A stretch of 43,346 nucleotides of DNA from a phage. Below, piece after piece: positions 3,475 to 37,990 of this stretch. Under the pieces are notes generated by a model that was given only the letters and a program-made list of their open reading frames with translations, was not told where the DNA came from and did no database searches. Made by a program: the position numbers and the translations under genes. How positions within the stretch are numbered: the first letter of the stretch is position 1; each line of letters starts with the position of its first letter. The DNA is taken from the NCBI GenBank assembly GCA_031490115.1, contig GCA_031490115.1_4355.1; one strand, written 5' to 3'.

Positions 3475-3500
3475 TCCTTATGTCTCGTTTCGATAAGTGA

Positions 3501-3529
3501 ATAGTATCCTATTATGTTGGGGTGTGCAA
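3501..3529 (-). promoter_or_regulatory. sigma70-like promoter (TTGCAC-N17-TACTAT), leftward
   Basis: -35 is the reverse complement of 3524-3529, -10 the reverse complement of 3501-3506, 17-nt spacer. Confidence 0.6.
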
Positions 3530-3588
3530 GATAATAGTTACGTTGCCGTTGTGATTCTTTCGTTTCTTAAAAGAGTACGCAACGCAGC

Positions 3589-3691: not shown

Positions 3692-3838
3692 TAACAATAG
3701 ACTTTGACCCTTCCGAAAGCGTCAGCGGAACTACACTCAAGTGCCTAATGGCACGCGTTGCGTTCCCTGCCGCTCCGCGGTCGCTTGCGATATCTCACAA
3801 GCTCAGTGAAGCTTAGCATATTTTCAAGTAAAAGTCAA
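3692..3838 (-). repeat. copy A of a duplicated promoter-plus-leader element
   Basis: About 80 percent identical to 34856-34998. Minus-strand -35 TTGACT (3833-3838), 17-nt spacer, TGn-TAAGCT -10 (3810-3815), then a conserved leader with hairpin GTGCC-taat-GGCAC (3741-3754). Confidence 0.6.
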
Positions 3839-7328: not shown

Positions 7329-7359
7329 GTCAGTTACTCCTTAGTCAGTTGATATGTGA

Positions 7360-7388
7360 ATAGTACCATATTAATTATTTTAGAAAAG
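7360..7388 (-). promoter_or_regulatory. candidate promoter of the XRE regulator gene
   Basis: -10 TACTAT (reverse complement of 7360-7365) with a poor -35; contains the GAATAG/TATT dyad. Confidence 0.4.
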
Positions 7389-7392
7389 CCCA

Positions 7393-7421
7393 TTGACATG
7401 TGAATAGTTCGCTATTATAGT
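7393..7421 (+). promoter_or_regulatory. sigma70-like promoter (TTGACA-N17-TATAGT), rightward
   Basis: TTGACA 7393-7398, 17-nt spacer holding the GAATAG-N4-CTATT dyad, TATAGT 7416-7421. Confidence 0.65.
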
Positions 7422-7449
7422 TAGCCCATACCAAACGAGAGGGGCAGAT

Positions 7450-9765: not shown

Positions 9766-9965
9766 TTCAAGTAAATGAAATGCCCACAGATAAAGATTTT
9801 GTGATGATATGGCGCTGGGGCGGTTATATCCATTCGGAATCGTTTACGTTCCTGAACGGCACGATGGTGCGATACAACCATGTGGAGGATGAATTCGAAC
9901 CCGTTGATATGAATGATTTCGAGAACATAGTCCGTATTGCGAAATTTTATTTGACACCTGAATAG
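9762..9965 (+). CDS. hypothetical protein
   Basis: 67 aa, coupled through GAGGAGGATTTAGAATGA. Confidence 0.45.
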   Translation: MIQVNEMPTDKDFVMIWRWGGYIHSESFTFLNGTMVRYNHVEDEFEPVDMNDFENIVRIAKFYLTPE

Positions 9966-9979
9966 TTAGCTATTATAGT
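9951..9979 (+). promoter_or_regulatory. sigma70-like promoter (TTGACA-N17-TATAGT)
   Basis: TTGACA 9951-9956, spacer with GAATAG-ttag-CTATT, TATAGT 9974-9979. Confidence 0.65.
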
Positions 9980-10038
9980 TCTAATCACTGACCGGGCAGC
10001 TTCCCGGAGTAAACGAAACTTAAAAGCGAGAAATTAAG

Positions 10039-13262: not shown

Positions 13263-13543
13263 CTAAAGAGGGCCGCATCCAGAAATACGCAAAAGAGCGA
13301 TTTGAGGCCATCGGGGGCCTCGTCCGTAAACTGTCTTATGAGGGGCGCTCCGGCGCTCCCGACCTGCTGGTAATTCTCCCGGGCGGCATCGTCTGGTTCG
13401 TCGAGGTGAAGAAAGACGAAAGCACGAAGCCTGACCCACACCAGTTACGAGAGCATGAGCGGATGCGTAAACGTGGTGCGAATGTTTTTGTCGTCGGGTC
13501 GTTCAAACAGGTTGACGACCTAGTAGCGAGCTATTATAGTTAG
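13259..13543 (+). CDS. VRR-NUC domain nuclease
   Basis: 94 aa; PDLLVILPGG...FVEVK is the PD-(D/E)xK core of VRR-NUC proteins. Confidence 0.75.
   Translation: MTKEGRIQKYAKERFEAIGGLVRKLSYEGRSGAPDLLVILPGGIVWFVEVKKDESTKPDPHQLREHERMRKRGANVFVVGSFKQVDDLVASYYS
13512..13540 (+). promoter_or_regulatory. sigma70-like promoter (TTGACG-N17-TATAGT)
   Basis: Lies in the 3' end of the VRR-NUC gene; same spacer dyad family. Confidence 0.55.
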
Positions 13544-15841: not shown

Positions 15842-15844
15842 AGA

Positions 15845-15872
15845 AAAGGCCCCGTTTGGGGCCTTAGTTTAT
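15845..15872. terminator. bidirectional terminator between the replication module and the tail genes
   Basis: GGCCCC-gttt-GGGGCC flanked by A-rich and T-rich runs. Confidence 0.65.
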
Positions 15873-25346: not shown

Positions 25347-25719
25347 AGATTGCTTCTAAGCCCATGATAATGTCTATCTCGAACAGGCTAAGCTGTTTTT
25401 GCGTAACATCGAGATAGGCTTTCAGGTCTTGCCACGTAACGGATTCTCTTGCGAACAATACTACAGCGTCCTCGCGCACGTGTCGCGTAAACTTAATGTC
25501 ACAGTACGTCTCAAAGGTGGATATAAAAAGGGGCGGGCATTCTGGCCCACCCCGTCGCGCTGCACGTTTTTTCTTATCGATTACACCCATCGCGATAAGC
25601 GCCTGTTCGTGTCCGTCAGCTATAGAATCAAACTCTCTGATTTTATGCTTATCCACAAACTCGTAGGTGGCGAACCTGTACAGCGCGTCTACTTTTCCTG
25701 TAATGCTTTGCGCTCGGCG
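25324..25719 (-). CDS. tail assembly chaperone T segment (candidate -1 frameshift extension of G)
   Basis: Reading frame open from 25719 and in the -1 frame relative to the G ORF; overlaps the last ~10 codons of G, where the mRNA reads CAG GAA AAG TAG. Confidence 0.5.
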   Translation of the reverse strand, partial: RRAQSITGKVDALYRFATYEFVDKHKIREFDSIADGHEQALIAMGVIDKKKRAARRGGPECPPLFISTFETYCDIKFTRHVREDAVVLFARESVTWQDLKAYLDVTQKQLSLFEIDIIMGLEAIFEGRNHG

Positions 25720-26108
25720 TTATGGAACGCTGCAACCTGGGTTCCAAGCCCTTTGAACTGGTCGAGCAATTTGTTAAACGCTTCCTTAGAGAAAGGCTCG
25801 TCGTCAAAGCTCCAGCCGTTTACGACTTCTGCCGCGAGTTGTCGGTTGAGGTCTTCCGCCAGTTCATTAACCGCCAGGTTATATTCAGTATAGTCGCCGG
25901 ATTCTTTGGCGGCTTTTTCCAGTTCTTCAAAACGCGCCAGCCCGCGGCGGTACGCGATAATGAAAGCACGCCCCGCTTTAACGGCGACATCGGCATCTGG
26001 ACTTACAACATTAAGCCACTCACCGGAGTCTTCGCCGTTTGGTAGCAGAATCGGCATCTTCTTGCCTACCAGTGCTTTCTCTTCGAAATAGAAATCAGAA
26101 AGTTTCAT
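25689..26108 (-). CDS. tail assembly chaperone (gpG-like)
   Basis: 139 aa, acidic, between major tail and tape measure genes. Confidence 0.6.
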   Translation of the reverse strand: MKLSDFYFEEKALVGKKMPILLPNGEDSGEWLNVVSPDADVAVKAGRAFIIAYRRGLARFEELEKAAKESGDYTEYNLAVNELAEDLNRQLAAEVVNGWSFDDEPFSKEAFNKLLDQFKGLGTQVAAFHNAERKALQEK

Positions 26109-26217
26109 TCTTTAATCCTTTGGTTAAGAGGTTACGGGTTAACGATAAATGCGCCAGACGGGAACCACCCGCTTTTCGTGTGCGACACTAGGCGCAAAAA
26201 TTATTCTACCACAATAC

Positions 26218-26246
26218 TTGCACACCCCAATATAATAGGGTACTAT
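26218..26246 (+). promoter_or_regulatory. sigma70-like promoter (TTGCAC-N17-TACTAT), rightward
   Basis: Same element as 35065-35093; 30 nt upstream of the Imm-like gene. Confidence 0.6.
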
Positions 26247-26276
26247 TCACTTACACCAACAATGGAGGGGTTTAAA

Positions 26277-26505: not shown

Positions 26506-26787
26506 ATGGCCCGGAAGAAAATAACCGACGAACAGTTGCAGGAAGAATTGAACGCCGGTATGAAGAATGTAGATATCGCCCGTAAATACGGCATCTCAGA
26601 CCGCGTAATTCGTATCCGTAAAGCGAAGCTGGCTAAGAAAGGCGTGGGCCACGGGCGCGACGTTAGCCACCTTGTGCCAGACGGCTACAAGATTAAAGGA
26701 ACGTCGTCACTTGTGGACGAGTTCGGCAACACTAAGTTGCAATGGGTTAAGACTGATACCGACGCCGAACGTCGGGTTGAATTGTAG
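26506..26787 (+). CDS. putative HTH DNA-binding protein
   Basis: 93 aa; NVDIARKYGISDRVIRIRKAKL is HTH-like. Confidence 0.45.
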   Translation: MARKKITDEQLQEELNAGMKNVDIARKYGISDRVIRIRKAKLAKKGVGHGRDVSHLVPDGYKIKGTSSLVDEFGNTKLQWVKTDTDAERRVEL

Positions 26788-27990: not shown

Positions 27991-27994
27991 GAAA

Positions 27995-28020
27995 AAGGCC
28001 CCGAAAGGGGCCTTAGTTTT
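27995..28020. terminator. bidirectional terminator
   Basis: GGCCCC-gaaa-GGGGCC followed by TTAGTTTT; overlaps the major tail gene stop. Confidence 0.65.
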
Positions 28021-34513: not shown

Positions 34514-34745
34514 GGGTAATCACCTCTGATTTCGTCTTGCCTTCGTTGTCGGCGGCGGCGGCCTTTGATTCGTCCTGCTGCTGCCGTTGTGTTTTCTTCG
34601 CTAACTCAGCCTGCGCTTTCTGCTGTTGCTGCGAAACGAGATTCGCCCGGCCTTCGCTCCAGCCGCTGCGGTACTGATAAATGCCGTGTGTGTAAGCCAG
34701 GATGATGAAACATGCTCCCGCTACGACAGTTGCTTTAAGATTCAT
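34359..34745 (-). CDS. i-spanin (Rz-like)
   Basis: 128 aa; N-terminal TM helix, Gln-rich coiled coil, embedded lipoprotein ORF. Confidence 0.55.
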   Translation of the reverse strand: MNLKATVVAGACFIILAYTHGIYQYRSGWSEGRANLVSQQQQKAQAELAKKTQRQQQDESKAAAADNEGKTKSEVITREVVKYIRTPGRSVCTFDPERVQLKSRAVANANSIPGYDDDAAAVQTGAAK

Positions 34746-34761
34746 GTTTCCCCTTTCTCGA

Positions 34762-34789
34762 TAAGTAAAGCCCCGCCTTAAAGCGGGGC
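34762..34789 (-). terminator. terminator-like hairpin in the leader of the late operon
   Basis: GCCCCGC-N6-GCGGGGC followed on the minus strand by UUUACUUAU, about 185 nt downstream of the copy-B promoter and 25 nt upstream of the Rz start. Confidence 0.45.
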
Positions 34790-34855
34790 GCTAGTCCTTA
34801 TCATTTAAACATAGAAACGGCGTAATCTCAGTAAATCAGTTACTTTTTACACAAG

Positions 34856-34998
34856 CAATAGAGCACGGCCCTTCAGAACGCGTCAGCGTAACTACACTCA
34901 GGACTTACGTCCCGCTCCGTTACCTGCCCGCGCCGCGGTCGTTTGTTCATACTTCACAAGCTCAGGTGGAGCTTAGCACATTTTTAGTGAAAAGTCAA
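34856..34998 (-). repeat. copy B of the duplicated promoter-plus-leader element
   Basis: Minus-strand -35 TTGACT (34993-34998), 17-nt spacer, TGn-TAAGCT (34970-34975); conserved leader; hairpin GGAC-ttac-GTCC (34901-34912) replaces copy A's GTGCC-taat-GGCAC. Confidence 0.6.
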
Positions 34999-35064
34999 CT
35001 ATTCGAATAGTTTATTCCAACATTTACAATTCGGTGGAATAACTGGAATACGTAAATAAATAGT

Positions 35065-35093
35065 TTGCACACCCCAATATAATAGGGTACTAT
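35065..35093 (+). promoter_or_regulatory. sigma70-like promoter (TTGCAC-N17-TACTAT), rightward
   Basis: A 28/29-nt match to the promoter at 26218-26246. Confidence 0.6.
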
Positions 35094-35120
35094 TCATTCT
35101 ATCGAACCGAGGAGGCCGTC

Positions 35121-35631: not shown

Positions 35632-35635
35632 AAAT

Positions 35636-35658
35636 AAAGCCCCGTAAGGGGCCTTTTA
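35636..35658. terminator. bidirectional terminator
   Basis: AGCCCC-gtaa-GGGGC followed by CTTTT. Confidence 0.6.
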
Positions 35659-36120
35659 TCATTCTGGCTTAGTTACCTTCGCCGCTTTACTGACGGCCTC
35701 TACCCCATCGGCATCAGTAACTTTAACGAAGTATTCGCCGACCGCATTAACCGTCAGAGACAGAGCCTCCTCAGGCGCATTCACCACTTCCTTACCGTCT
35801 TTGTACCAGGTCAGAGAATACGGCGCTTTGCCTGCCTTAACCTCGACAGTGATGGTTGCGCTGCCGCCCGCCAGTTCAGCGTCCTGCGGTTGCGCGGAGA
35901 AATACACGTCGCCAGCGTCCGCCAGATACGGAATTTCATAAAGCATACTGGCGGCGGGCAACGCAATACCGGTTTTATCTGCAAACGGCATATCATCTAC
36001 CGGTGTACCGAGTACACTTTCGTCCCCAATAAATACCACGTTCTCGCCAGAGCCAGACACGCGGGCGTACTGGACTACGCGACGAGACGGTACGTCAGTT
36101 ACTTTGAAAAAGCCCATCAT
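35659..36120 (-). CDS. Ig-like domain structural protein
   Basis: 153 aa; YSLTWYKDGKEV...GEYFVKVTDADG is an Ig I-set-like motif shared with the 31701-32042 product. Confidence 0.5.
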   Translation of the reverse strand: MMGFFKVTDVPSRRVVQYARVSGSGENVVFIGDESVLGTPVDDMPFADKTGIALPAASMLYEIPYLADAGDVYFSAQPQDAELAGGSATITVEVKAGKAPYSLTWYKDGKEVVNAPEEALSLTVNAVGEYFVKVTDADGVEAVSKAAKVTKPE

Positions 36121-37305: not shown

Positions 37306-37959
37306 ATGAAACTGCAAACATTAGAGTTCCCTTATGGAGAAATCACTTTTGACCGTGAAAACTTTATTAACGTAAACGAGCTGGTTGACCAGATGAACCG
37401 TTGGCGTTTAGACAACGGCATGGGGGCCAGAGAGCTTCGCCAGGTCATGGCAACGGATGGCTTCAAGATTTTCAAGGAGGAATGCGAAAAACAACTCGGA
37501 ATCGAGAATGCCATAAGGGCGACGAAAGGCCGAAACGGTCGCACCTTTGCATGTCTCCATCTGGCAGTATATATTGCTGAGCAATACAGCGCCTATTTCC
37601 ATTTCCTCGTTATCGACCGCTTTATCACACAACGGCAGGTAGAACTACGAAACATTGGCGCGGTGAGCTTTGTCGAGCTTAACGCTGCCGTTAGTCGAAT
37701 GATCGAGCGCACGGAGGGAAGAATTGGCCACAGTGGACACTTCATACAGGTGGCTAAAGCGGTAAAGGAATCCGTAGATATCCGCGACGTAACGGGTTTC
37801 GATACATGGGACTCTCAGGATGCGAAGACCAATCAGTTGCGAAGTGACATCCAGAAAGCTCTGGTGACGCTTCTTGACATGGAGGCCGTTAATACATGGG
37901 GTGAACTGAAAGAGGCGATACCTCGGGTTGTGCGTAAATGTGCGGCTAATATACGTTAA
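37306..37959 (+). CDS. KilA-N domain protein
   Basis: 217 aa; N-terminal region (...NGRTFACLHLAVYIAEQYSAYFHFLVIDRF) fits the KilA-N/APSES-type fold; AGGAGAAA upstream. Confidence 0.55.
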   Translation: MKLQTLEFPYGEITFDRENFINVNELVDQMNRWRLDNGMGARELRQVMATDGFKIFKEECEKQLGIENAIRATKGRNGRTFACLHLAVYIAEQYSAYFHFLVIDRFITQRQVELRNIGAVSFVELNAAVSRMIERTEGRIGHSGHFIQVAKAVKESVDIRDVTGFDTWDSQDAKTNQLRSDIQKALVTLLDMEAVNTWGELKEAIPRVVRKCAANIR

Positions 37960-37963
37960 AACT

Positions 37964-37990
37964 AAGGCCCCTAGCGGGGCCTTTCTATTT
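37964..37990. terminator. bidirectional terminator
   Basis: GGCCCC-tagc-GGGGCC followed by TTTCTATTT; overlaps the portal stop. Confidence 0.6.

Follow-up and report, generated by a model that had tools for sequence, protein, structure and literature searches.

Organization of the copy B locus

The stretch of Kagunavirus phage DNA analysed here, referred to as the window (43,346 nt; GenBank assembly GCA_031490115.1, contig GCA_031490115.1_4355.1), encodes on its minus strand a promoter, a leader and a terminator-like hairpin ahead of the head and tail genes (Table 1). This order had been put forward in a preliminary description, and we found it to be present at the locus, duplicated in the window and kept in relatives. 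The copy B leader extends for ~220 nt from the promoter and closes with a GCCCCGC-N6-GCGGGGC hairpin. As the preliminary description stated, this hairpin and its U-rich tract lie shortly before the start codon of an Rz-like spanin gene; the gap is 24 nt, and no promoter fits into it. The spanin ORF (34745-34359) is the first gene of the head/tail operon, which is ~6.7 kb long, and the spanin, scaffold, major head and tail genes proposed to lie downstream are so annotated in relatives. Because the stretch from the hairpin to the first late gene has no promoter, transcription of the late genes must pass through the hairpin. For the tail operon (start at 26108), there is a separate promoter and a leader that lacks the RNA element described below.

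The copy B promoter is composed of a -35 hexamer TTGACT (34998-34993), a 17-nt spacer, a TG dinucleotide (34978-34977) and a -10 hexamer TAAGCT (34975-34970), with a predicted transcription start near 34963. TTGACT, TG and TAAGCT are invariant over ~65 loci, and the single base separating TG from TAAGCT is C, A or G. The conservation of TG and the two hexamers supports an extended -10 promoter, which the consensus scanner overlooked because TAAGCT matches the consensus at three of six positions. In the record of phage fBC-Eco01, a host promoter is annotated at the equivalent site. The preliminary description assumed a constitutive promoter; immediately upstream of it there are a conserved 16-bp palindrome and TATTCC/GGAATA repeats. 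The structured core of the leader begins 0-3 nt from the predicted start, and promoter and core are kept as a single unit.

Table 1. Features of the two leader loci and of the operon headed by copy B
Feature	Position	Strand	Details and basis
Leader promoter, copy B	34998-34970	-	Extended -10 sigma-70 type; read from sequence, conserved over ~65 loci
Structured leader RNA core, copy B	34965-34851 (~115 nt)	-	Covariance model R1, 126.8 bits
A+U-rich spacer, leader B	34850-34790	-	Alignments
Terminator-like hairpin, leader B	34802-34760	-	Terminator scan; ARNold terminator annotated in fBC-Eco01
Ribosome-binding site and Rz-like spanin ORF	34759-34359	-	AAGGGG 34755-34750, ATG 34745; ORF list, annotation of relatives
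Internal terminator-like hairpin	32398-32377	-	Directly after major capsid gene; -14.9 kcal/mol, tail score -3.57
Bidirectional terminator, end of head/tail operon	28014-27995	-	Repeat and terminator analysis
Promoter, copy A	3838-3810	-	-35 TTGACT 3838-3833, 17-nt spacer, TG 3818-3817, -10 TAAGCT 3815-3810
Structured leader RNA core, copy A	3806-3690	-	R1, 104.5 bits; single-sequence fold z = -2.9
Long composite hairpin, leader A	3629-3569	-	AGAGUAC...GGGGUGGGC-UAAA-GCCCACCC...GUACUCU, then UUUU; -32 kcal/mol
Second promoter downstream of leader A	3529-3501	-	TTGCAC-17-TACTAT; AATAG-N4-CTATT in spacer

The leader core is a conserved structured RNA

The core folds into a 5'-terminal hairpin (P1) followed, after 2 nt, by a long irregular hairpin (P2). 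P2 has a bulge and internal loops as well as an asymmetric loop that is conserved (GGAGC/GAGUGUAG), and its apical hairpin is variable; beyond P2, the core continues as a single-stranded GGAAGGGCC...UCUAUUG tail. Single-sequence folds of ten sequence types concur on this arrangement, and copy B itself carries two substitutions that break pairs of the consensus. RNAalifold, run on the raw MAFFT alignment in which the apical hairpin is misaligned, returned a structure without P2, and a hand-drawn structure with a model-based alignment was used. In the unfitted MAFFT alignment, 92% of cells pair, compared with 33-40% when the partners are slid, and there are 28 compensatory cells compared with 10.5 in shuffles (the observed value was reached in none of 500). 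When the alignment is fitted to the model and includes the J-type, both sides have changed at 15 of the 29 pairs (2 of 500 shuffles), with 140 both-side-changed cells versus 38 in shuffles, and 95% of cells pair. The G-U pairs in the stems make the fold specific to the transcribed strand. The core is a conserved structured RNA, and compensatory changes preserve its fold among the phages of the Guernseyvirinae.

In each of the three classes, P1 forms the extreme 5' end, with a class-specific sequence. The stems covary, and the invariant nucleotides are found in the asymmetric internal loop (GRAGC/AGYGUA) and in the GGAAGGGCC and UCUAUUG tails. The apical loop varies freely (GUAA, AUUA, GUCA, UGUAG or UCACAA).

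A search of the whole window against Rfam 15 at gathering thresholds gave no match, and a permissive E-value search of 34700-35100 returned a single chance hairpin (14 bits against a threshold of 35). No tRNA or tmRNA was found. A kink-turn in the core was rejected because the tandem G-A geometry is unfit, while a loop-E or S-turn-like arrangement of GUA/GRA is possible. We also rejected an ops/RfaH site, since comparison by eye with the ops consensus gave agreement at 8 of 12 positions in the J-type loop, 5 of 10 in the B-type and none in the A2-type.

The spacer and the terminator-like hairpin

The spacer of leader B contains ACUGA, GCCGU and AUGUUUA motifs that are common to copy A and the J-type. 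It also contains a weak second promoter-like site (TTTACT-16-TATGTT), where a second host promoter is annotated in fBC-Eco01. A mini-ORF in this spacer (AUG-UUU-AAA-UGA) was dismissed, as it is not a conserved feature in A and has no Shine-Dalgarno sequence.

The upper stem of the leader B hairpin, GCCCCGC-UUUAAG-GCGGGGC (34789-34770), is followed by the tail UUUACUUAU (34769-34761), which pairs with an A-rich run upstream to form a lower stem (GAUAAG/CUUAUC). The terminator scan, which found seven terminator-like sites in a 2-kb region where 2.2 were expected, recovered this hairpin with eight pairs, seven of them G-C. Its stem energy is -15.8 kcal/mol, and its U-tail score of -3.99 is within the range of the operon-end terminators of this phage (-3.3 to -4.2). 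As a G+C-rich hairpin directly before a U-rich tract, it is a predicted intrinsic terminator. The hairpin is conserved with compensatory variants, such as GCCCTGC/GCAGGGC at locus L010. The J-type, which is the commonest form in Jerseyvirus, has the tail UUAGCGUAU with a poor U tract (score -3.04); therefore, the hairpin may not always terminate efficiently. The "U tract" of B, J, A1 and A6 takes part in an irregular hairpin of ~17-25 bp, the lower stem of which has a class-specific sequence. The stem CCCCGC/GCGGGG equals the repeat stem of type I-E CRISPR systems, but the loop, the flanks and the J-type differ, and we judged the likeness to an RNA anti-CRISPR (solitary repeat) to be due to chance.

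A second copy heads the early operon

Copy A is a paralogue of copy B. The preliminary description had assigned the same promoter and leader to both copies, which holds for the promoter and the first ~115-147 nt (BLAST, 76% identity over 147 nt, E = 5e-21), whereas the remaining leader and the hairpins differ. Copy A heads the early/lysis/packaging operon, where its own hairpin comes next and a second promoter after that; members of this second-promoter family recur at 26217-26253(+) and 35065-35096(+). Because the same RNA also heads the early/lysis/packaging operon and a second promoter follows it there, the element is not a late-specific switch. Copy A is optional, being present in ~40 of 181 relative records, and the R1 model found no third copy in the window, Golestan or Bas70.

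Distribution and modularity

The RNA is present in ~450 related phage genomes (Kagunavirus and Jerseyvirus), with the divergent J-type in 269 Jerseyvirus genomes. Across the loci of both genera, the non-coding leader is 95-98% identical, compared with 60-80% in the 200 nt upstream. A match to the RNA was not obtained in 5,426 E. coli genomes. A motif scan of 100,044 species genomes (bacterial and archaeal) gave 39 pattern hits, of which 38 were chance occurrences, almost all in G+C-rich genomes; the remaining hit, on a contig of 738 bp, is a J-type element and probably represents contamination. The single "plasmid" match is a 44-kb phage genome. The RNA is thus restricted to phages.

Five unrelated downstream hairpins (B, J, A1, A2 and A6) occur in combination with one core family, and at loci L056 and L034 the B slot holds A-type cores. 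SETP13 and SETP7, whose genomes are collinear and ~90-95% identical, nevertheless differ in their cassettes, which are B-type in the former and J-type in the latter. The combination of one core with five unrelated hairpins and the swapping of core types between slots speak against a riboswitch and are compatible with a mechanism that does not depend on the terminator. A processive mechanism that is independent of terminator sequence would tolerate such mixing of hairpins, and one based on alternative pairing would not. The late leaders of two distant relatives, St162 and Klebsiella phage VLCpiS11a, gave no R1 match. Unrelated structured leaders lie in the same slots in Bas70, St162 and the A slot of SETP7, and in the latter two cases a UCUAUU-type motif is again found behind the leader domain.

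Comparison with known antitermination systems

Kagunaviruses and Jerseyviruses are among the most often isolated therapy phages of E. coli and Salmonella and, to our knowledge, encode no RNA polymerase, no Q and no N. Literature searches on these phages yielded genome papers with computational predictions and found no experiment, transcript map or description of this RNA. In agreement with the preliminary description, we recognized no Q homologue, and likewise no N or other antiterminator, among 10 small proteins searched against Pfam and PHROGs or in the annotations of Golestan, Bas70, SETP13 and SETP7, and a scan for N-like arginine-rich motifs found none in any real gene.

The locus resembles lambda pR'-tR' (6S RNA) and StxS in having a promoter, a ~200-nt leader and an intrinsic terminator just upstream of lysis or structural genes, and in that a short terminated transcript is expected as a by-product. 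In Q systems (lambda, 82 and 21), however, the promoter contains a Q-binding site, and a -10-like element that is transcribed early causes a sigma-dependent promoter-proximal pause; by eye, the alignments showed no such element conserved across the B, A and J types. Additionally, Q recognizes DNA and a paused polymerase, whereas conservation here lies in a covarying RNA fold. Lambda N/nut and rrn boxA share with this leader a hairpin and adjacent conserved single-stranded motifs ahead of long operons; the boxB loop is conserved in N/nut, in contrast to the apical loop here. A boxA in the UCUAUUG region was unconvincing, agreeing at 6-7 of 12 positions by eye with the rrn boxA consensus. The Bacillus eps EAR RNA and other processive antitermination leaders are alike in being structured leaders of ~120 nt proposed to make the polymerase resistant to terminators over the length of a long operon. 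EAR differs in that it occurs in other organisms, and no Rfam family was matched here and no shared sequence is evident.

In layout, the locus also resembles the put sites of phage HK022. The put RNAs (putL and putR) are cis-acting, protein-independent antiterminators that suppress pausing as well as termination, the latter independently of the terminator sequence (PMC9378689). Each is ~70 nt long and forms two stem-loops in a V shape that binds the zinc-binding domain of the RNA polymerase beta-prime subunit (PMC9378689). Like put, the leader RNA is placed directly after a sigma-70 promoter and ahead of terminators, has two stem-loops with irregular internal loops, occurs as two diverged copies per genome that each precede a different operon (the second being optional here), and has no dedicated antiterminator protein encoded with it. 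In contrast, it is ~115 nt long with a different helix layout, lacks the put signature motifs GAACGGC and GGCGGGUUCAGGAUGAACGGCAAU, and belongs to virulent Guernseyvirinae rather than to lambdoid temperate phages. Rfam has no put model, and the HK022 put region gives no match in it. A covariance model, R2, built from seven put sites with conserved GAACGGC, GUCGG and GGCGGGUUCAGGAUGAACGGCAAU blocks, gave HK022 putL 96 bits and putR 57 bits but scored both window leaders at no more than 4.2 bits, even with filters off; the reciprocal search of HK022 with R1 found nothing. BLAST for put returned 21 records only, none from Guernseyvirinae. Membership of the put family is ruled out by these reciprocal covariance models, and as the leader RNA is unrelated to put, the analogy is one of layout only. 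The earlier suggestion of a Q-like or put-like switch thus stands insofar as a covarying RNA lies where a put-like device would sit; its Q-like part is unsupported, and the put family itself is not matched.

A putative antitermination model

Overall, we favor, as a tentative explanation, a put-like leader RNA that would act in cis to let host RNA polymerase read through both the leader terminator and the terminator behind the capsid gene. The need for such read-through is inferred from the leader B hairpin, which scores like the terminators of the phage itself, and from the further predicted terminator behind the capsid gene. As HK022 put does, the RNA would act in cis on the polymerase that has just made it: it would fold on leaving the exit channel, remain with the elongation complex and reduce pausing and termination. 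The polymerase would then cross the terminators at 34789-34770 and 32398-32377 and finish the ~6.7-kb head/tail operon. Copy A would have the same effect on polymerases that start upstream of the early/lysis/packaging operon. Transcripts that stop at the leader B hairpin would yield a ~195-nt RNA as a by-product, and late timing would be set at the promoter, where the palindrome and the repeats lie upstream, and not by the RNA. We speculate further, with still less confidence, that the core represents a second, structurally unrelated family of RNA-only processive antiterminators acting directly on E. coli or Salmonella RNA polymerase. Such a family would have arisen in the virulent siphophages of Kagunavirus and Jerseyvirus and would spread as a promoter-plus-RNA cassette that can be exchanged and set before any operon.

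Several points weigh against the put-like model. With an RNA-only antiterminator, the adjacent terminator seems to have no purpose and there is no timing. The tail, which in all forms pairs with an A-rich run upstream into a long hairpin and is poor in the J-type, also fits an RNase III site or a stabilizing hairpin. Copy A is optional, and its layout, with its own hairpin and then a promoter, is that of a self-contained small-RNA gene. Relatives such as Bas70 and St162 have unrelated structured leaders in these slots, and the spacer is conserved as well, which a purely put-like model does not require. A conserved, covarying leader RNA ahead of the structural operon offers a concrete handle on late transcription that is easy to test. 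Should it act like put, only one other RNA family would be known that reprograms enterobacterial RNA polymerase without the help of proteins; structural work would gain a new natural interface of RNA polymerase, and synthetic operons would gain a part for antitermination that is both compact and portable. In the case of a free small RNA or of a site for protein binding, it is nonetheless an RNA family without annotation.

Alternative explanations

It is rather unlikely that the ~195-nt (B) and ~240-nt (A) transcripts are free small RNAs that act in trans, with the late genes expressed by leaky read-through. A promoter, a structured RNA and a terminator do make a complete small-RNA gene, all the more so for copy A, an optional cassette with its own promoter and hairpin before another promoter. 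Moreover, the whole leader including the spacer is highly conserved, the 5'-terminal hairpin would shield a free RNA, and the arrangement resembles lambda 6S RNA and StxS from pR'-tR'; one report (PMC7547250) describes the short pR' transcript of Stx phages as a functional small RNA. However, the three U residues after the hairpin make a poor Hfq-type 3' end, and the A and B spacers differ and recombine apart from the core, leaving no evident conserved seed. The hairpin of the B slot stands 24 nt ahead of the first start codon in an essential operon, where termination, if efficient, would also starve the late genes. We consider it unlikely that the RNA is a loading site at which an unrecognized small phage protein or host Nus factors relieve attenuation or termination there, in the manner of nut/N or rrn antitermination. 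Such a factor would supply the delay expected of late genes, candidates would be available among the many small early proteins without known function, and invariant loop and tail nucleotides between covarying stems are the usual look of a protein-binding RNA; the recurrence of a UCUAUU-type motif behind the unrelated leaders of St162 and of the A slot in SETP7 also points in this direction. Nevertheless, no candidate of the Q, N or arginine-rich kind emerged from annotations and scans, the apical loop, in contrast to boxB, is free to vary, and the agreement of UCUAUUG with rrn boxA is poor. In addition, B and J cassettes swap between near-identical genomes without a linked swap of a neighboring gene, and the same RNA heads both an early and a late operon.

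A stabilizing or processing 5' UTR, in which the fold guards against 5'-end-dependent decay and Rho loading and the long hairpin is a stabilizing site or a site of RNase III/RNase E processing rather than a terminator, is quite unlikely in our view. It would agree with the position of P1 at the extreme 5' end in three classes despite sequence differences, with the pairing of the "U tract" into the long hairpin in B, J, A1 and A6, with the poor U tract of the J-type and with the unrelated structured leaders that fill the same slots in relatives. However, a simple stabilizer needs no 115 nt with invariant loop nucleotides and would not be expected to retain 93-98% identity across two genera, and the hairpin in the window scores equal to the real terminators of the phage. 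A riboswitch or other sensor, with an aptamer that senses a ligand or condition and governs terminator formation, seems very unlikely. Although the order of an aptamer-like RNA, a terminator and a ribosome-binding site fits and conservation is concentrated in loops and junctions, folding of the full-length B and J leaders gives the hairpin a probability of ~1 and reveals no antiterminator pairing that competes with it. The joining of one core to five unrelated hairpins over a variable spacer of 60-90 nt rules out a conserved, mutually exclusive pairing; in addition, no Rfam family matches and no matching motif was found in the bacterial genomes scanned. We give hardly any credence to the idea that the conserved block is a small protein-coding gene or a site acting at the DNA level. 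Very short hypothetical CDSs have been placed on this block (Bas70_0007, fBCEco01_09 and SETP7 gp07), but indels of 1, 2 and 4 nt separate the sequence types, the substitutions pair up across stems and do not fall at codon third positions, the transcribed strand has no ORF of at least 40 aa here, and the G-U pairs are strand-specific. The RNA is mis-annotated as tiny hypothetical genes in at least three examined records (Bas70, fBC-Eco01 and SETP7), and "hypothetical protein" features underlie the match in many more.

Architecture of the two leaders

The genome is that of a Kagunavirus (Guernseyvirinae) with ~97% identity to phiEc4 and Golestan over the query region, and its copy B element is read on the minus strand (see the table of features). 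A simple promoter scanner misses the copy B promoter because TAAGCT fits just three consensus positions. Over ~65 related loci, the −35, the TG and TAAGCT are invariant and the single base separating TG from the −10 is variable; by this conservation signature, the promoter is of the extended −10 type. A terminator scan detected the hairpin; at −15.8 kcal/mol for the stem and −3.99 for the U tail, it scores within the range spanned by the terminators that end this phage's operons. The annotation of fBC-Eco01 independently puts a host promoter and an ARNold terminator at these two places. Because these three lines agree, the promoter, leader and terminator-like hairpin proposed in the preliminary description are confirmed.

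Self-BLAST of the window aligned copy A, in the same orientation, at 76% identity over 147 nt (E = 5e-21). The two copies had been described as having the same promoter and leader; this holds for the promoter and the first ~115 nt of the transcript (the core), beyond which they have only short motifs in common. In the Golestan annotation, the copy A operon comprises small early genes, holin and endolysin, terminase, portal and head morphogenesis genes, and the copy B operon runs from spanins to scaffold and major head protein and on to tail protein.

Features of the window and of related loci (window coordinates unless a locus is named)
Feature	Coordinates	Strand	Remarks
Copy B −35, TTGACT	34998-34993	−	followed by 17-nt spacer
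Copy B TG-c-TAAGCT	−10 at 34975-34970	−	predicted start near 34963
Copy B core	34965-34851	−	G+C-rich, ~115 nt
Copy B spacer	34850-34790	−	A+U-rich
Copy B hairpin	34789-34770	−	GCCCCGC-UUUAAG-GCGGGGC, tail UUUACUUAU
Ribosome-binding site, then Rz-like spanin ORF	ATG 34745	−
Palindrome AACTATTCGAATAGTT	34997-35012		16 bp, perfect
TATTCC...TTATTCC...GGAATA repeats	35013-35060		divergent intergenic region
Copy A	3695-3838	−	self-BLAST match
Copy A composite long hairpin	3629-3569	−	with UUUU
Promoter 3′ of copy A hairpin	3529-3501	−	TTGCAC-17-TACTAT
Hairpin directly 3′ of capsid gene	32398-32377		terminator-like; copy B operon
End of copy B operon	28014-27995		bidirectional terminator
Bidirectional terminator family	15844-15870, 27993-28019, 35634-35660, 37957-37989		AAAAGGCCCC-N4-GGGGCCTT
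Early-promoter family	3490-3530, 7349-7422, 9951-9980, 13512-13541, 26217-26268, 35065-35115
Strong terminator-like hairpin	25530-25553	−	9 pairs, 8 G-C, then UUUUUAUAU
Exonuclease-like ORF	26506-26787	+
Unrelated structured leaders	L079 36258-36560 (Bas70); L065 1090-1260 (St162); L087 36460-36760 (SETP7)		own promoters, hairpin 3′
Core annotated as hypothetical protein	34851-34965; L079 5282-5392; L080 474-590; L087 5775-5894
J-type element, Taishania contig	L091 409-510		36.6 bits
VLCpiS11a late-operon leader	L067 1330-1600
(CTCA)n run	L045 ~7700; L062 ~4350		A2-type copy-A leaders

A structured RNA restricted to phages

On strong comparative support from sequence, the core is an undescribed, phage-restricted family of structured leader RNA. 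Folded singly, all ten sequence types gave one common shape. A hairpin (P1) occupies the extreme 5′ end and, after two linker bases, is followed by a long irregular hairpin (P2) built of CCG/CGG, a bulged C, a 6-bp helix, CAG/CUG, GNAAC/GUUNC, an asymmetric internal loop (GGAGC facing GAGUGUAG) and an apical hairpin of 5-6 bp with a variable loop. The 3′ tail, GGAAGGGCC...UCUAUUG, is single-stranded. The fold contains several G-U pairs and is therefore specific to the strand that is transcribed. Fitting to R1, our covariance model of the core, biases an alignment towards the structure; the unfitted MAFFT alignment by itself already supports the fold.

Support for the core fold (fitted alignments are biased towards the structure)
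Alignment	Cells paired	Paired, partners slid	Both-side changes	Compensatory cells, observed vs shuffled
MAFFT, unfitted	92%	33-40%	4/29 pairs	28 vs 10.5 (0/500 shuffles)
R1-fitted, 40 distinct sequences	95.9%	32-39%	7/29 pairs	81 vs 19 (0/500 shuffles)
Fitted, with Jerseyvirus class	95.1%	30-44%	15/29 pairs (2/500 shuffles; slid controls ≤4)	140 vs 38 (0/500 shuffles)

Relative to the consensus, two substitutions in the window's copy B disrupt base pairs; its R1 score is 126.8 bits, against 140.8. Several GenBank/RefSeq records annotate the core as a small hypothetical protein. Such tiny coding sequences are ruled out because the types differ by indels of 1, 2 and 4 nt, and the calls are almost certainly spurious.

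BLAST matched the B-type core to 181 phage records; the copies in E. coli Kagunaviruses are 93-98% identical to those of 65 Salmonella phages. The 224 match places imply a second copy in roughly 40 records; this copy A is far more variable. R1 also picked up a diverged version of the core in Salmonella phage GE_vB_M4, at 38.7 bits, and a search with that version retrieved another 269 records, Jersey, SETP3, SE2 and SS3e among them. This J-type has a different P1 hairpin (ACGCU-UUC-AGCGU) and CGCG/CGCG in place of the middle helices, and retains the P2 base, the internal-loop motif and the GGAAGGGCC tail. Together, the two types occur in ~450 of the 496 records with a gene for a homologous scaffold protein. 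None of 5,426 complete E. coli genomes contained the core, and no Rfam family matches core or leader. When 100,044 species genomes were scanned for the motif, the hits were chance matches, nearly all in G+C-rich genomes, and one 738-bp contig of the Taishania pollutisoli CZZ-1 assembly bearing a J-type element, most likely a Jerseyvirus contamination.

Modular arrangement of the core

One core family is combined, through variable spacers, with five unrelated downstream hairpins (classes B, J, A1, A2 and A6). Two IMG/VR phages (L056 and L034) carry A-type cores ahead of the head-tail operon (the B slot). SETP13 has a B-type and SETP7 a J-type element; the two genomes are collinear, with 90-95% identity, and their alignment breaks exactly at the promoter-plus-core cassette and resumes within the spacer. 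In some relatives, an unrelated structured leader occupies the early-operon A slot (Bas70, SETP7) or the B slot (St162), with the hairpin kept; the St162 and SETP7 leaders contain UCUAUUC, and those of Bas70 and SETP7 have UGCCG in common. Across loci, the non-coding leader is 95-98% identical, whereas the 200 nt upstream are just 60-80% identical.

Possible function of the core

Every late transcript must cross the copy B hairpin because no promoter fits between it and the start codon. The earlier interpretation as an antitermination switch is partly supported. An antitermination role for the core is reasonable but unproven. We tentatively rank first a mechanism in which the leader RNA would act in cis to modify host RNA polymerase, and the modified enzyme would read through both the hairpin of the leader and the terminator behind the capsid gene. 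The proposed function resembles that of HK022 put RNA (PMC9378689). Membership in the put family was rejected: a covariance model of seven put sites recovers putL and putR and scores both window leaders at ≤4 bits, and the reciprocal search of HK022 with R1 was empty.

However, a terminator right behind a constitutive antiterminator seems purposeless, and the J-type U tract is poor. The layout of copy A is moreover that of a self-contained small-RNA gene, which favours a free small RNA with late genes expressed by leaky read-through; we rank this second, at a somewhat lower probability. Ranked below it is a core that would serve as a loading site for a protein or Nus factors. Searches for Q, N or another antiterminator were negative in the annotations of three relatives, in ten small proteins scanned against Pfam and PHROGs, and in an arginine-rich-motif scan. 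In all classes, the tail and an upstream A-rich run pair into a long hairpin, which counts against polymerase modification in that processing or stabilisation would explain it just as well; a leader with such a role has a lower probability still. A sensor is very improbable. A riboswitch-type device is unlikely because the hairpin has a probability of ~1 in full leaders and a conserved competing pairing is impossible with five unrelated hairpins.

Upstream DNA sites and other elements

The promoter had been called constitutive, which is doubtful. The palindrome AACTATTCGAATAGTT abuts the −35, shares its first two bases and is centred ~41.5 bp upstream of the predicted start; nearly invariant in B-type loci and not present upstream of copy A or in the J-type, it is a possible regulator site. 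The TATTCC/GGAATA repeats are kept ahead of the leader promoters of the B-type as well as the J-type, which suggests a DNA-binding regulator common to the two. With these sites upstream, timing may be set at the promoter. In Klebsiella phage VLCpiS11a, the equivalent late-operon leader lacks the core and contains several TTGCGAG copies, suggestive of a different, DNA-based control.

The early promoters form a family (TTGACA or TTGCAC, then TATAGT or TACTAT) with an AATAG-N4-CTATT inverted repeat within the spacer. The fBC-Eco01 paper names this motif 'phage RNA polymerase promoter'; annotations of the relatives examined contain no RNA polymerase gene. Near-identical bidirectional terminators lie at junctions of convergent operons, and the strong hairpin at 25530-25553 lies within the tail-assembly-chaperone region, directly upstream of the tape-measure gene. 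The ORF at 26506-26787, previously taken for an HTH product, matches no Pfam HTH family. Its hit is to the N-terminal part of a family of phage DNA repair exonucleases (phrog_704, E = 9e-23), and the ORF may represent an exonuclease gene that has been split or truncated. Just 5′ of the leader hairpin in two A2-type copy-A leaders, a (CTCA)n run differs between phages, with three versus six repeats.
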